From NCBI GenBank assembly GCA_049682815.1, contig JBAUII010000011.1:14881-78880 (forward strand): 64,000 nucleotides of DNA, given 5' to 3'. The notes under the pieces are model-generated. The model did no database searches. It had not been told where the DNA came from and was given only the letters and a program-made list of their open reading frames with translations. Positions 3,191-61,241 of this stretch are shown here, one piece after another; within the stretch, counting starts at the first letter, position 1; the number at the start of each line of letters is the position of its first letter. This DNA comes from Thermodesulfobacteriota bacterium. Its GTDB lineage: Bacteria; Desulfobacterota_D; UBA1144; Nemesobacterales; CSP1-2. A program made the translations under genes and the position numbers.

Positions 3191-4615
3191 TTAAAGATCT
3201 CTGTCTAAATCCCAATTTCTTATATCTACAAAATGTCCCTCAATTGCGGCTGCGGCGGCCATTATCGGACTTACTAAATGGGTTCTACCGCCTTTTCCCT
3301 GACGCCCTTCGAAATTTCTGTTTGAGGTGCTTGCACATCTCTCCCCCGGCGCGAGTATATCGGGATTCATCCCTAGACACATGCTGCACCCAGATTCGCG
3401 CCATTCAAATCCGGCCTCTTTGAAGATCTTGTCAAGTCCTAACTTCTCGGCTTCAGATTTAACCATCTGAGAGCCCGGCACCACCATTGCCCTTATGGTT
3501 GAGGCCACTTTTTTGCCCTTTACCACTTTCGCCGCCGCGGTTAAATCTTCAAGTCTGGAATTCGTGCAGGAACCAATAAACACCCTATCTAAGGCAATTT
3601 CTTGAATTGGTGTCTTTGGCTTAAGCCCCATATACTCTAGCGCACTTTTGGCCGCCTTTTGGATTGCCGGATCAGAAAAGGAGTTTGGGTCGGGAACAAT
3701 TCCGACTACGTCTGTAACCATTCCCGGATTAGTGCCCCAACTCACTTGAGGAGCCATGACGGATGCGTCGAAGGTAACGGACTTATCGAATACCGCGCCT
3801 TCATCTGTCCTCAGTTTCTTCCATTCTGAAACTGCTTCCTCAAATTCAATCACTTTAGGAGCATAAAGTCTCCCTTCAATGTACTTGAAGGTTTTTTCAT
3901 CGGGAGCGATCATTCCCGCTCGTGCGCCCGCTTCTATTGACATATTGCAAATTGTCATCCGTTCTTCCATTGATAGGGCCTCGATAGCTTCTCCTGTATA
4001 CTCAATAACCGTTCCAGTCGCACCTGCTGTTCCTATGTAGCCAATAATACTCAGGATTATATCTTTAGCTGTCACACCTCTTGATCTGACTCCGTTTACT
4101 TTGACCTCAAAAACACTGGGTCGGTTTTGTCTGAGACATTGAGTTGCTAGGACGTGTTCTACTTCGCTCGTGCCAATACCAAAAGCCAGGGCTCCGAAGG
4201 CACCGTGAGTTGAAGTATGACTGTCGCCGCAAACAATTGTCATTCCGGGCTTGGTGAGTCCAAGCTCTGGTCCAATTACATGCACGATCCCCTGTAAATG
4301 ACTATTTACGCTCAGGCCAAATAATTCGATTCCAAATTCTTTACAATTTGCTCGTAGCGTATCCATCTGCTTTTTCGATATAGGATCGTCAATCGGTAAG
4401 TTTCTTGCGCTTGTTGGTACATTATGATCCTTGGTGGCGAAGGTCAGGTCTGGCCTTCTTACCATTCTTCCCGACAGGCGGAGGCCTTCGAAGGCTTGTG
4501 GTGAGGTGACCTCGTGGACAAGGTGTAAGTCAATAAAGAGAAGAGTTGGTTGACCCTCTTCCTCATAAACGACATGGGATTTCCAAATTTTATCAAACAG
4601 TGTTTCGGCTGCCAT
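3191..4615 (-). CDS. leuC: 3-isopropylmalate dehydratase large subunit
   Basis: 474 aa aconitase-family protein with [22 protein letters not shown], full-length collinear with LeuC. Confidence 0.9.
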
Positions 4616-4851
4616 ATGTTAGTCCTGCAATTTCGCTTTAACTCGTAATTATACATGAAAATTTTTTAAGTTTAATTTCGGCCATCGTGGACGCGATCAA
4701 ATCGGTATTACATATGCCTGACTGTCGAAAATGAACCATGTGTTTAACACGAACGAAAGTCGGCATTTTATTGCGCGCCCGTTCTTTCGGATATTTACAA
4801 AATCATTTTAGTATAGAACAGGACACAGCGCCGGCTGCATGCTTTGATTTA

Positions 4852-58006: not shown

Positions 58007-58195
58007 ATGATGAGAACAAATGAATACATTAGGGATGTGAAACAGGGTGAATTAAAGCCGTTCCATGGTAAATTCTGGCAGCGGAACTATTATGAACACA
58101 GTACGCGTGATGAAGATGATTTGAATAAAATAAGGCAATATATTCAGAACAATCCATTGGAGTGGCATTCGGACGTTGAAAATCCCAATAGATAA
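58007..58195 (+). pseudogene. truncated IS200/IS605-family Y1 (HUH) transposase / REP-associated tyrosine transposase (RAYT), C-terminal fragment
   Basis: 62 aa ...GKFWQRNYYEHSTRDEDDLNKIRQYIQNNPLEWHSD, the conserved C-terminal block of TnpA_REP/IS200 transposases. The N-terminal HuH and catalytic Tyr regions are absent, so it is a relic. The same frame is open upstream through the REP doublet to about 57917. Confidence 0.65.
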
Positions 58196-59156: not shown

Positions 59157-59258
59157 GTAAAGGATGCAGGATGCATGATCCACGATACAAGATTCGTCTA
59201 AAGGTGGTATAGCAAATGATTATTGATATCGTGGAAACTGAATTAGAGGGGATATCTC

Positions 59259-59765: not shown

Positions 59766-59809
59766 TATAAGAATTCAGGAGGCAGGAGACAGAAGTTCTA
59801 AAGAAGCTC

Positions 59810-59873
59810 CAAATTACAAGCACCAAATTACAAACAAATTTCAAATAACAAATCTCAAATAACAAACAAATTC
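59810..59873. repeat. left inverted-repeat block (CA-rich) of the four-helix-bundle cassette
   Basis: 59810-59844 is the reverse complement of 60296-60330 (34 of 35 positions). 59843-59873 is the perfect reverse complement of 60414-60444 (31 nt). Confidence 0.7.
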
Positions 59874-59883
59874 TAATTCTCAA

Positions 59884-60237
59884 ATGACAAAGCCAAAGAA
59901 GTATGATTTAGAAGATAGGACATTCAGATTTGCTAAGGAAGTAATCAAATTTGTAAACGTCCTCCCAAGATCATTATCCAATTTTGAGATAGCGAAACAA
60001 GTCGTACGATCTTCGGGATCAGTGGGCGCAAATTATATTGAAGCAATTGAAGCACTTGGGAAAAAGGATTTTAAAATGAGAATTAAAATCTGTCGTAAAG
60101 AAGCAAAAGAAAGCGCTTACTGGGTAAAACTTGTAGAAGTCAACGATAAGGAAAGAGAACAAACTAGGCAACAGTTAATAGATGAAGCAGCGCAACTAAC
60201 GAGAATATTTAGCTCAATTCTTCAAAAATCTAAATAA
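59884..60237 (+). CDS. four-helix-bundle protein (TIGR02436, 23S rRNA intervening-sequence protein family; Avd-like)
   Basis: 117 aa with FRFAKEVIKF...LPRS...IAKQVVRSSGSVGANYIEA...KDF...RIKICRKEAKESAYWVKL, the hallmark motifs of this family. Confidence 0.85.
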   Translation: MTKPKKYDLEDRTFRFAKEVIKFVNVLPRSLSNFEIAKQVVRSSGSVGANYIEAIEALGKKDFKMRIKICRKEAKESAYWVKLVEVNDKEREQTRQQLIDEAAQLTRIFSSILQKSK

Positions 60238-60295
60238 ATGCCACTTCTTCAATTAGTGATCTACACGTAGCCTGTAATTTGATGCTTGAAAATTG

Positions 60296-60444
60296 AAATT
60301 TATTTGTAATTTGGTGCTTGTAATTTGTGGTTTATTAAGAAATTGAACATATCTTACGCGCTTATAGAGGAACAAGGTGACTTCTACCATTAAAAATTAA
60401 AAATTGTCATTTGGAATTTGTTTGTTATTTGAGATTTGTTATTT
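60296..60444. repeat. right inverted-repeat blocks (GT-rich) of the four-helix-bundle cassette
   Basis: 60296-60330 pairs with 59810-59844, and 60414-60444 pairs with 59843-59873. The right block abuts the stop codon of the convergent enoyl-CoA hydratase gene at 60450. Confidence 0.7.
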
Positions 60445-60449
60445 AGGAT

Positions 60450-61241
60450 TTAAGAGCCTTTAAAAACTGGTTTTCTCTTCTCTGCGAATGCCGTTTGACC
60501 CTCTTTATAATCAGAGCTAGATTGTACCTCAAGGATCATTTGCTTCAGGGTCTCCTCATCGGCCGAATCGAGCTTTTGATTCGTTTGCCATCTATTTATC
60601 GTGTACTTCATGGTTTTCATGGCGAGGGGCGCGTTCGAAGCAATCTCGTTTGCGAGCGAGTACGTGTGTTCTTCGAGCTCCGATGAAATCTTCACCTCGT
60701 TTACAAGTCCAATGTTTAATGCTTTATCTGCTTCAATTGGGTTCCCTATGAGGAACATTTCTTTTGTGTAGCCAATACCTATAAGGTTTAGAAATTTCCT
60801 GATTCCTGTATAGGTGTAAATTACTCCCAGTTTAGCTGGAGGCATCCCCAGCTTCGCGTCCTCGACACAGACCCTGTAGTCACAGGTGACGGCTAATTCC
60901 AGGCCAGCTCCAAAAGCATGGCCATTAATCATCGCAATAACAGGGTAGGGGAATCTCTCGATGCTTTTTCCGGCAATGATCAGCGGATGATCACCTTCAT
61001 AGTCTCGTATCATATCATTGTCACCTATTGCCGCAATATCGTATCCCGATGAAAATGCCTTGTCCCCAGCCCCGCGTATGACGACACATCTTACCTTCCC
61101 CTCATCAGCGAGTCTTTTTAGTTCCTCATGAATTTTCAAAAGCATCGTCGGTGTTAAGAGATTTCTTTTATCCGGTCGGTTAAAGGTTAAAGTACAGATC
61201 AAACCCTTTTCCTCTACAAGCAGGTCTGACGCTGAGGGCAT
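60450..61241 (-). CDS. enoyl-CoA hydratase/isomerase (crotonase) family protein
   Basis: Oxyanion-hole motifs RGAGDKAFSSGYD and INGHAFGAGLELA. Confidence 0.85.
   Translation of the reverse strand: MPSASDLLVEEKGLICTLTFNRPDKRNLLTPTMLLKIHEELKRLADEGKVRCVVIRGAGDKAFSSGYDIAAIGDNDMIRDYEGDHPLIIAGKSIERFPYPVIAMINGHAFGAGLELAVTCDYRVCVEDAKLGMPPAKLGVIYTYTGIRKFLNLIGIGYTKEMFLIGNPIEADKALNIGLVNEVKISSELEEHTYSLANEIASNAPLAMKTMKYTINRWQTNQKLDSADEETLKQMILEVQSSSDYKEGQTAFAEKRKPVFKGS

Follow-up and report, generated by a model that had tools for sequence, protein, structure and literature searches.

Within the window (the whole stretch of DNA that was analyzed, 64 kb in length), an ORF at 59884-60237 on the plus strand scores 75.9 bits against the TIGR02436 profile HMM (cut-off 24) and 55.2 bits against PF05635 (cut-off 33.8). 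Both scores exceed the curated cut-offs, and the four-helix-bundle (4HB) gene of the TIGR02436 family that an earlier note had read from the sequence is borne out. The same note placed the gene in an insertion between a nitroreductase (NR) gene and an enoyl-CoA hydratase (ECH) gene, and both neighbors were found where this requires. The features of the locus are as follows.

59158-59194, plus strand: solo array; five heptamer units (AGGATGC AGGATGC ATGATCC ACGATAC AAGATTC), directly after the Era stop codon
59259-59765, plus strand: NR gene, upstream of the cassette and co-directional with it
59775-59797, plus strand: remnant of a different heptamer array (CAGGAGG CAGGAGA CAGAAGT), between the NR stop codon and the cassette
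59804-59842, plus strand: outer part of the left array, with L1; CA-rich degenerate heptamers (CAAATTA CAAGCAC CAAATTA CAAACAA ...)
59843-59883, plus strand: inner part of the left array, with L2, reaching the start codon
59884-60237, plus strand: 4HB protein gene, S23p / 23S_rRNA_IVP family; 117 aa, pI 9.8
60273-60336, plus strand: first right array, consisting of R1 and a 32-nt tandem copy; GT-rich heptamers, without a start-codon complement
60337-60403, plus strand: spacer between the two right arrays, fast-evolving and with no recognizable content
60404-60449, plus strand: second right array, made up of TTGTCATTTGG, which is complementary to the start codon, and R2; directly adjoins the stop codon of ECH
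60450-61241, minus strand: ECH gene, convergent; stop codon at 60450-60452

The gene is bracketed by two inverted-repeat pairs. L1 (59810-59844) and R1 (60293-60327) are complementary over 35 nt with one mismatch (C in L1, A in R1), while L2 (59843-59873) and R2 (60414-60444) form a perfect 31-nt complement, in agreement with the coordinates given earlier. The left arms are contiguous and the right arms split, also as previously described, and since the order is L1-L2...ORF...R1...R2 the pairs are interleaved rather than nested. The 25-nt core of each arm occurs only at its two places in the window when up to three mismatches are allowed (no matches are expected in shuffled sequence), and a repeat scan of the whole window turned up no further inverted repeat of this kind. 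The 64 kb contain neither rRNA nor tRNA nor any Rfam family, so the remark that no rRNA lies nearby holds for the entire window. The 4HB protein is the sole product encoded in the cassette, inside which there is no promoter or terminator of note, and no Shine-Dalgarno (SD) sequence was found in the inner left array ahead of its start codon.

Two properties of the arms had escaped the earlier note: they are arrays of degenerate tandem heptamers, four to six units long, and the inverted repeat takes in the start codon. The repeat extends inward as CCAAATGACAA at about 59878, facing its complement at 60404-60414, and the segment 59836-59883, with the first codons, is 85% complementary to 60404-60451. 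The first right array contains a direct repeat (60273-60304 and 60305-60336, 81% identical), and the second right array in turn repeats the R1 region in direct orientation (about 72%), as seen in a related locus (L011). The possibility that the spacer between R1 and R2 is a decayed second 4HB ORF was considered and rejected, as blastx returned translated heptamers only.

The predicted RNA duplex of the left array with R1 has an energy of -57.5 kcal/mol (-21.5 ± 4.2 with a shuffled right arm), and that with R2 an energy of -52.4 kcal/mol (-16.5 ± 3.4 when shuffled); the arms are thus able to form stable duplexes. When a 691-nt transcript was folded, the minimum free energy structure contained L1:R1 and the centroid structure L2:R2 (z = -3.55). 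The alternative long stems around the ORF that had been proposed are thermodynamically real. Across cassettes, the arms carry no RNA-strand signature (120 G.U against 106 A.C mismatches in the sense strand, p = 0.39). When left arms were compared with the right arms of all cassettes, the partner from the same cassette came first in only 9 of 43 cases (median rank 6 of 43), a weak signal. In the four orthologous lineages, arm conservation is a matter of sequence and not of compensatory changes, and in L011 the arms are complementary at only about 78%. Overall, the arms track a family consensus more than they covary privately.

The AlphaFold2 monomer model of the 4HB protein (pLDDT 93.3) has helices at residues 10-25, 31-55, 60-83 and 89-115. 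Its best fold matches are 2rld (TM 0.78/0.84), which is also recovered by phmmer (E = 2e-12), and 2gsc (TM 0.80). A structural kinship with the accessory protein Avd had been pointed out before and is upheld by TM values of about 0.66-0.71 against 4dwl and 8ub7, although the modeled fold is nearer to the S23p proteins 2rld and 2gsc (about 0.8) than to Avd (about 0.7). The structure entry 2rld has five chains, and the 4HB relative Xcc0516 is reported to be a homopentamer (PMC4990558). Compared with orthologous cassettes, the dN/dS of the gene is 0.16-0.27, and the protein evolves under purifying selection. The 'four helix bundle protein' family is very large, with matches in at least 7,997 clusters. 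Neither PHROGs nor PADLOC gave a match for the cassette and a scan of viral contigs found none, while a phage collection yielded two weak matches at 27-29% identity.

Arms and non-arm DNA differ in conservation. Among four lineages the outer left array is 82-100% conserved and the inner left array 88-100%; the first right array is 81-92% conserved, but the 35 nt preceding it only 52-74%, and the spacer between R1 and R2 is 50-70% identical compared with 87-93% for the second right array. Overall, arms are conserved at 81-100% and adjacent non-arm DNA at 50-74%. The NR|ECH site itself is variable in occupancy. An empty site, which the earlier note had proposed to look for, is present in Dadabacteria (L068 and L069), where 13 nt separate the convergent stop codons. 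In close relatives, whose ECH proteins are 84-97% identical, the site holds three cassette types with 4HB proteins only 25-33% identical, and L070 and L001 carry different cassettes despite 97% ECH identity. The cassette of L067 is inverted and frameshifted. A CATGATG-type family occupies the Era|NR site in L011 and the NR|ECH site in L075, with proteins 72% identical. In the window, the array remnant at 59775-59797 matches the outer left array (TATAAGAATTCAGGAGTCAGGAGACAGAAGACAGAAG...) of the CAGAAGA-type 4HB cassette at the same site in L070; the remnant is also found in L001, L011 and L071. The window-type cassette, for its part, is single-copy and vertically inherited at the NR|ECH site within its own clade. 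In this clade, wherever the contig of a 4HB homolog (79% identity or more) could be linked to one that carries ECH, the homolog lies at this single site, and so the window copy is old and possibly domesticated.

The solo array at 59158-59194 marks a second site, between Era and NR. It is the only lag-7 array that a strict detector found in the 64 kb (none in 20 shuffles), and it is all that is left of a second cassette, one of a different type. At the Era|NR site, L011 and L009 have a complete minus-strand 4HB cassette with the same heptamer flavor as the solo array, L071 has a copy with an internal deletion, in L075 the site holds a hairpin with no ORF, and the stub in L001 and L070 is two units long. 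Together, these loci form a decay series that ends in the solo array of the window.

The architecture is general. Inverted repeats flanking the ORF were scored at 49 4HB loci, representing 12 phyla or more, and for 163 other ORFs of these loci as controls; the median was 21.2 for the 4HB genes and 9.0 for the controls (control 99th percentile 14.6), and 43 of the 49 cassettes lay above that percentile. For the census of arrays the strict lag-7 detector was superseded by the counting of unit runs, because the units are degenerate and it missed most arrays. Arms contained four to six heptamers, most often five in left arms and four or five in right arms, and runs of at least four were present in 3 of 150 control segments. 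Among cultured genomes, the layout recurs in Nostoc punctiforme, Anabaena cylindrica (where it lies between cas2 and cas1) and Chlorohelix. The heptamer arrays at the 4HB genes of N. punctiforme and A. cylindrica have the units GTCGGAG and AGTAAAA. Clades of the protein tree mix phyla and have a heptamer flavor in common. Full cassettes are usually co-directional with the upstream gene (24 of 28, p = 2e-4). A literature search for general accounts of 4HB cassettes with heptamer flanks yielded only a study of Coxiella (PMC4990558), and the family is widespread and apparently little described so far.

Further copies of the arms, including copies in 23S rRNA, were another proposed check, and the arms proved not to be unique to the locus. 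The 18-nt arm core of the window, AAATTACAAGCACCAAAT, was found in at least 120 metagenome contigs, mostly in ORF-less hairpins of about 150 nt; of the paired elements with the core, 52 of 56 are shorter than 300 nt. It is common to cassettes and miniatures of other phyla and to 23S IVS (intervening sequence) hairpins, and in two contigs the core hairpins lie inside bacterial 23S rRNA genes, as an H63 insert in L149 and in L129. The 23S gene of L149 has further heptamer-armed inserts in the H25 and H45 regions and in those around positions 1860 and 2190. Three contigs (L114, L122 and L178) carry several copies of the core, and miniatures have no orientation bias (32 against 39). Direct repeats flanking 51 miniatures matched controls with mismatched flanks and gave no sign of a target-site duplication (TSD) beyond the control level, although short TSDs may be masked by the somewhat fuzzy ends, and no transposase or reverse transcriptase (RT) was present among the annotated neighbors in related loci. 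By the usual description of IS elements and MITEs, then, terminal inverted repeats and multiple dispersed copies (counted in metagenome contigs) are present, no TSD was detected, and the element does not encode a cognate transposase of its own. The earlier idea of a dispersed or mobile element is supported by the recurrence of the arms, the empty site and the three swapped cassette types, with the qualification that within the window's own clade this cassette is single-copy and passed on vertically.

The window element is an IVS-type cassette outside rRNA. We think it probable that it is a promoterless selfish cassette of the 23S-IVS type, lodged between convergent housekeeping genes. In this unit, about 5-10 degenerate tandem heptamers make up a left array that reaches the ATG; the gene of a basic Avd/S23p-like 4HB protein follows, and then one or two complementary right arrays. 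Transcription would occur by read-through from the co-directional NR gene, and in the transcript the arrays are computed to pair, as L1:R1 or L2:R2, in a stem that would enclose the ORF and could bury the start codon. By analogy with the Coxiella IVS, RNase III would then cut the stem and free the cassette RNA, a cut by which the insertion may become harmless in places where cleavage of the host RNA is tolerated, as at the tips of rRNA helices and in intergenic spacers. The weakest step of the model concerns the protein, which would be retained by selection and most likely binds the heptamer arrays as a pentamer, at about five units per arm, such binding perhaps serving the control or propagation of the element itself. 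At the DNA level, such units turn over: they are gained, replaced or inverted, shrink by internal deletion to hairpins without an ORF, and vary in unit number. More tentatively, and with rather less confidence than in the local model, the 4HB-heptamer cassettes might form a distinct and very abundant class of mobile element, whose sole protein would be an Avd-like pentamer recognizing its own arrays of about five units and whose movement or maintenance would be unrelated to known transposases. This class could be the source of the classical 23S IVSs and of the numerous ORF-less hairpins, and possibly of the cyanobacterial STRR heptamers.

Several other explanations account for part of these observations. 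The arrays could be the terminal inverted repeats of a DNA transposon family acted on by a transposase encoded elsewhere, with the hairpins as its MITEs, the 4HB protein as an accessory DNA-binding factor or passenger, and the RNA structure incidental. The terminal inverted repeats, the great excess of miniatures over ORF-bearing copies, their multiple occurrence in single contigs, the lack of orientation bias in miniatures and of RNA-strand bias in mismatches, and the existence of both filled and empty sites would all fit, and in the window's clade there is a gene or fragment for an IS200/RAYT-type Y1 transposase 1.7 kb upstream (58007-58195 in the window). This explanation is nevertheless unlikely, as no TSD exceeded background, no transposase is found inside the cassettes or consistently beside them, and the supposed terminal repeats are variable-number tandem repeats of many flavors, unlike known IS ends. 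Moreover, the RAYT gene is missing from L011, which does carry the cassette, and the arms, being AT-rich heptamer arrays, lack the short GC-rich palindromes of REP/REPIN elements. A second possibility, with which the absence of a TSD would agree, is an RNA-mediated (retro)element, in which the excised cassette RNA, with an Avd-like pentamer bound to it, is copied by an RT supplied in trans and integrated, in parallel with the role of Avd as an RT cofactor in diversity-generating retroelements (DGRs). The relation of the protein to Avd, its basic character, the orientation of cassettes with host transcription and the insertion points at rRNA helix tips and behind stop codons, which would suit targeting of transcribed or structured nucleic acid, point the same way. 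Against this, no RT, template repeat (TR) or variable repeat (VR) was found in the window or in the annotated related loci, the fold is nearer to non-DGR S23p proteins than to Avd, and miniatures occur in both orientations, so that we regard a retroelement as improbable.

An orphan avd gene left over from a DGR would explain the PF05635 membership and the Avd-like fold, but it is hardly credible: the reading is rejected because the 64 kb contain no RT and no TR/VR-type repeat pair, the related loci being alike in this, and it is refuted at this locus unless an RT and TR/VR outside the window act in trans. We also know of no heptamer arrays as a feature of DGRs. Somewhat less remote, and still very unlikely, is an ordinary resident host gene with structured UTRs, such as one for a small regulator or an RNA chaperone, the repeats being low-complexity AT-rich DNA unrelated to mobility or IVSs. 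The single-copy, syntenic and vertical inheritance in the clade, the selection acting on the protein and the lack of matches in defense and phage libraries are what such a gene would predict. The comparative data have already largely refuted it, however, as the arm sequence recurs in other phyla, in ORF-less hairpins and in 23S rRNA, some relatives lack a cassette at the site while others have a swapped one, and the arms are conserved where the neighboring non-coding DNA is not; duplex energies of -52 to -58 kcal/mol also speak against simple low-complexity tracts.

These findings bear on two questions open since about 1990, how rRNA intervening sequences arose and spread, and what the 4HB family does. 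The locus and its relatives indicate that ORF-bearing IVSs are one habitat of a general cassette that is also intergenic, decays to miniatures, swaps types at one site and crosses phyla. For annotation, a simple rule follows: inverted heptamer arrays can serve to identify cassettes, miniatures and remnants.

The nearest known counterparts are the ORF-containing 23S IVSs, such as that in helix 45 of Coxiella burnetii, with S23p, and that of Leptospira, which likewise contain an S23p/TIGR02436 ORF that runs in the same direction as the transcript of the host. The Coxiella IVS has two to three plus one tandem heptamers directly before the ATG, in a copy number that varies between strains, a poor SD sequence, and an inverted-repeat stem that was shown experimentally to be cut by RNase III; its authors consider that S23p is probably not translated there (PMC4990558). 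The window element shares the heptamers up to the ATG, the poor or absent SD sequence and the long stem of terminal repeats around the ORF, and this common anatomy, together with the arm-core hairpins in 23S rRNA genes, supports the IVS-like character that the earlier note had assigned to it. It differs in lying between the stop codons of convergent protein genes and not in helix 9, 25 or 45 of a 23S rRNA gene, in having a long left array with which two right arms interleave, and in its heptamer flavor (CAAATNN, against GACAGAT in Coxiella). Excision by RNase III has been shown for Coxiella only. With Avd it has in common the Pfam family and a basic four-helix bundle of similar modeled fold, but the window lacks the RT and the template and variable repeats of a DGR, of which flanking heptamer arrays are not known to be a part.

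Among short repeats, the Correia/NEMIS elements of Neisseria and the enterobacterial ERIC elements are intergenic sequences of about 110-250 nt with terminal inverted repeats and many copies, which are co-transcribed with their neighbors and form hairpins, those of NEMIS having been reported as RNase III substrates. Here, in contrast, the arms are tandem heptamer arrays, no TSD was detected, and in full-length relatives the encoded protein is of the 4HB type, not a transposase. Integron gene cassettes are also promoterless single-ORF units expressed by read-through, with imperfect inverted repeats, and exchangeable at one site, but they come with an integrase, attI and a cassette array, none of which is seen here, and have a single attC instead of repeats that bracket the ORF on both sides. 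Finally, the STRR sequences of cyanobacteria are tandem heptanucleotides in the intergenic DNA of Nostoc and Anabaena, described as having no associated gene, and by this description they resemble the heptamer arrays that flank the 4HB genes of N. punctiforme and A. cylindrica.

The 4HB gene of the window (four-helix-bundle protein, TIGR02436/PF05635) lies between a nitroreductase (NR) gene, which is upstream and co-directional, and the 3' end of a convergent enoyl-CoA hydratase (ECH) gene whose stop codon abuts the right end of the element, as the earlier note had placed it. Its family assignment holds, both profile scores exceeding their cut-offs, and the two inverted-repeat pairs (35 and 31 nt) reported around it were recovered:

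59810-59844: left arm L1, reverse complement of right arm R1 (60293-60327) with one mismatch
59843-59873: left arm L2, reverse complement of right arm R2 (60414-60444), perfect
59884-60237 (+): 4HB ORF, 117 codons; TIGR02436 75.9 bits (cut-off 24), PF05635 '23S_rRNA_IVP' 55.2 bits (cut-off 33.8)

Since the order is L1-L2-ORF-R1-R2, the pairs are interleaved. The left arm consists of degenerate tandem heptamers (CAAATTA CAAGCAC CAAATTA CAAACAA ...) with complements in the right arms, and the inverted repeat runs on into the ORF, taking in its start codon and first codons (CCAAATGACAA vs TTGTCATTTGG, 60404-60414); complementarity of the extended arms (59836-59883 / 60404-60451) is 85%. R1 and R2 are diverged direct copies of one another, with ~72% identity in the relative L011, so the cassette comprises one long left array and two right ends, and the 67-nt spacer between these holds no coding remnant. 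The arm cores do not recur in the window at up to three mismatches (chance expectation 0 matches), and a repeat scan of all 64 kb found no other comparable inverted repeat and no template/variable repeat pair like that of a diversity-generating retroelement (DGR). The same 64 kb contain no rRNA, tRNA or Rfam family, in agreement with the reported lack of a nearby rRNA gene. No Shine-Dalgarno sequence precedes the 4HB gene and no promoter or terminator of note was found inside the cassette.

Predicted RNA duplexes have energies of -57.5 kcal/mol for the left arm with R1 (-21.5 ± 4.2 with shuffled right arms) and -52.4 kcal/mol with R2 (-16.5 ± 3.4), far beyond the controls, which rules out inert low-complexity DNA and runs against the unstable duplex that the earlier note had allowed for. 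When 691 nt were folded, L1:R1 appeared in the minimum free energy structure and L2:R2 in the centroid, bearing out the idea that alternative long stems may enclose the ORF.

The ECH protein of the window is 100% identical to one encoded in a Thermodesulfobacteriota MAG. The gene order AspS-(RAYT)-Era-NR-4HB-ECH is orthologous in relatives L001-L019 and L071 (4HB identity 83-91%; RAYT, REP-associated tyrosine transposase), and most 4HB homologs of at least 79% identity, matched by length to the contigs of ECH orthologs, were placed at the same site, indicating that the cassette is single-copy and vertically inherited in the window's clade. The dN/dS of the 4HB gene (0.16-0.27) shows it to be under selection. 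Among four lineages, L1, L2, R1 and R2 are 81-100% identical and the ORF 84-94%; the corresponding values are 52-74% for the 35 nt after the stop codon and 50-70% for the R1-R2 spacer. As the arms were conserved while adjacent DNA drifted, the interleaved arrangement is an old, conserved feature. The arms vary by whole units: L001 lacks 32 nt in the left array and has 14 nt more in the right, and L009 has an additional 28 nt. Between lineages, dS of the 4HB gene (0.17-0.6) is two- to four-fold below the ECH value (0.58-1.5), a noisy estimate for so small a gene; the lower synonymous divergence may reflect cassette exchange among lineages more recent than the divergence of the flanks, or constrained synonymous sites. 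In the aspS-era gap, a 62-aa ORF (58007-58195, +) is a C-terminal fragment of an IS200-like/REP-associated tyrosine transposase (NCBIfam REP_Tyr_transpos 35.5 bits, below cut-off; Pfam Y1_Tnp E = 5e-4); L001-L004 carry a 174-199-aa transposase gene in this gap and L011 has none.

Comparison of orthologous NR/ECH loci, as proposed earlier, revealed an empty site: Dadabacteria share the synteny (ECH 66% identical), with 13 nt separating the two stop codons. In the relative L070 (ECH 97% identical to that of L001) the site is occupied by a cassette of another type, whose heptamers are CAGAAGA and whose 4HB protein has 133 aa, in L067 by an inverted, frameshifted cassette of the L070 type, and in L075, whose ECH is closest to that of the window (88%), by one of a third type (CATGATG heptamers, 134-aa protein); the three proteins share 25-33% identity. 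Three CAGRAGN heptamers between the NR stop codon and the left array (59775-59797), kept in the window, L001, L011 and L071, are a relic of the L070-type cassette; incoming cassettes may insert into resident arrays or recombine with them. At the Era|NR site, a full cassette on the minus strand is present in L011 and L009, and its protein is 72% identical to that of the L075 type found at NR|ECH; in L071 the cassette carries an internal deletion, in L075 it is reduced to an ORF-less hairpin, and a stub is left in L001 and L070. What persists in the window, immediately downstream of the Era stop codon (59158-59194), is a solo array of five AnGATnC heptamers, the last remnant of this second 4HB cassette, which is intact in L011 and L009. 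These comparisons document that cassettes inserted into a site that was ancestrally empty, that one site can hold different families and one family can occupy two sites, and that cassettes invert between their arms and decay to miniatures.

A search of 185,579 species genomes gave 47 loci with relatives of 39-66% identity, in Desulfobacterales, Aminicenantia, Patescibacteria, Victivallales, Bacteroidota, Ignavibacteria, WOR-3, Omnitrophota, Verrucomicrobiota and others. Almost all share one plan: heptamer array, ATG(ACC GAA A..), 4HB ORF, stop codon, then (GTTTCGGTCAT) and the complementary array. The best flanking inverted-repeat score had a median of 21.2 for cassettes and 9.0 for 163 control ORFs from the same loci, whose 99th percentile (14.6) was exceeded by 43 of 49 cassettes. 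Arms have 4-6 units (mode 5 left, 4-5 right); runs of at least four occurred in 3/150 control segments. The heptamer type (CAAATNN, CGAAATY, CCATTTN, TAAAYTY) varies by clade of the protein tree, and the clades contain mixed phyla. Cultured organisms with complete genomes follow this plan too: on pNPUN01 of Nostoc punctiforme, GTCGGAG units flank both sides. On plasmid pANACY.01 of Anabaena cylindrica PCC 7122 (L077, 592-939) a cassette separates cas2 from cas1 in a CRISPR adaptation module, and in Chlorohelix (L079) one has a helicase-related gene on one side and an N6-DNA-methylase gene on the other; cassettes seem to tolerate, or prefer, sites within operons. Those with an ORF share the direction of the upstream gene in 24/28 cases (p = 2e-4) and that of the downstream gene in 23/30, which fits a promoterless unit expressed by read-through.

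The further copies of the arms sought by the earlier note, including within 23S rRNA genes, were found when a metagenome collection was scanned for the 18-nt arm core AAATTACAAGCACCAAAT, which occurs in at least 120 contigs; together with the empty and swapped NR|ECH site, this agrees with a dispersed or mobile element. Among the matches listed, a recognizable 4HB gene adjoins 5 of 125 sites, a complementary right arm is present at 56 of 96 evaluable sites, and 52 of these 56 paired elements are shorter than 300 nt (median 152 nt), often keeping the start-codon segment AATGACC/GGTCATT. These short elements are ORF-less miniatures. In two contigs among the matches listed (L149 and L129) the miniature lies inside a bacterial 23S rRNA gene. 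That of L149 (6638-10243; Rfam LSU 2065 bits) is complete and interrupted by at least five hairpin inserts with heptamer arms: in the regions of helices 25 and 45 (classical sites of intervening sequences, IVSs) and at E. coli positions ~1715-1750, ~1860 and ~2190; a sixth may be present near ~270. In L129 (1-4712), a small heptamer-armed hairpin (488-580) lies in the 23S rRNA gene, downstream of which is a 5S rRNA gene (4595-4712). The arm core in hairpins within 23S rRNA genes makes the window cassette a DNA-level relative of genuine rRNA IVSs.

Short GC-rich hairpins border several L149 inserts on either side (e.g., CCGCACACAGTGCGG ... CCGCACTGCGTGCGG), and the L129 gene is also split by several large inserts (~0.3-1.3 kb), one with a long ORF (~1080-1720). 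Many miniatures of one subfamily, in metagenome contigs L088, L091, L095, L099, L102, L141 and others, have a conserved AACCCGGATAAACCGGAAATAAC before and TTAATTGCTGAAACC... after them; such miniatures may belong to a larger repeated unit or have an insertion target in common. ORF-less miniatures also occur directly beside full cassettes (L027, 3364-3600; L032, 526-700; L037, 2830-2990 and 3352-3500). At several such loci the best partner for the full cassette's left arm is the right arm of the miniature beside it, which resembles the R1/R2 arrangement of the window.

The AF2 model of the protein (pI 9.8) is a four-helix bundle (pLDDT 93.3). The kinship with the DGR accessory protein Avd suggested previously holds for the fold (TM about 0.66-0.71), but the model is closer to 2rld (BT_0352; TM 0.78/0.84) and 2gsc (Xcc0516; TM 0.80). 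From the five chains in 2rld and the unit counts per arm, a pentameric ring might read the ~five heptamers of each arm. Defence and phage family libraries gave no match to the protein.

The evidence supports a real IVS-type cassette outside an rRNA gene. For the observed anatomy, generality, conservation, site polymorphism, miniatures and rRNA occurrence, the best-supported account is a promoterless selfish or domesticated cassette, presumably transcribed with the upstream gene, whose arrays would pair into an RNase III-type stem enclosing the ORF and start codon, with probable cleavage by RNase III. Selection maintains the Avd/S23p-like protein, which may bind the arrays, and the family turns over at the DNA level. 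As to pairing, arm mismatches show no sense-strand excess of G.U over A.C (120 vs 106, p = 0.39), a left arm's best partner is its own right arm in only 9 of 43 cassettes, and the four orthologous lineages show no compensatory change, the arms being kept as sequences; the arrays may therefore be recognized as sequence motifs, for example by the protein, as much as by pairing. As to movement, miniatures show no target-site duplication beyond control, and no transposase or reverse transcriptase was found in or consistently near the cassettes examined.

No description of an extra-ribosomal, cross-phylum cassette family with miniatures was found in the searchable literature. For Coxiella, published work already describes IVSs that carry an ORF and heptamers. 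The helix-45 IVS of C. burnetii contains an S23p ORF with a poor Shine-Dalgarno sequence, preceded directly before the ATG by two to three GACAGAT heptamers and one degenerate copy, in strain-variable number; RNase III cuts its inverted-repeat stem in the middle, and the authors of that study mention an earlier suggestion of the IVS as a mobile element with an ORF serving mobility (PMC4990558). The window cassette matches this anatomy in its S23p-family ORF, its heptamers before the ATG and its inverted-repeat stem, and with the arm core in 23S rRNA hairpins this upholds the IVS-like nature first proposed for it.
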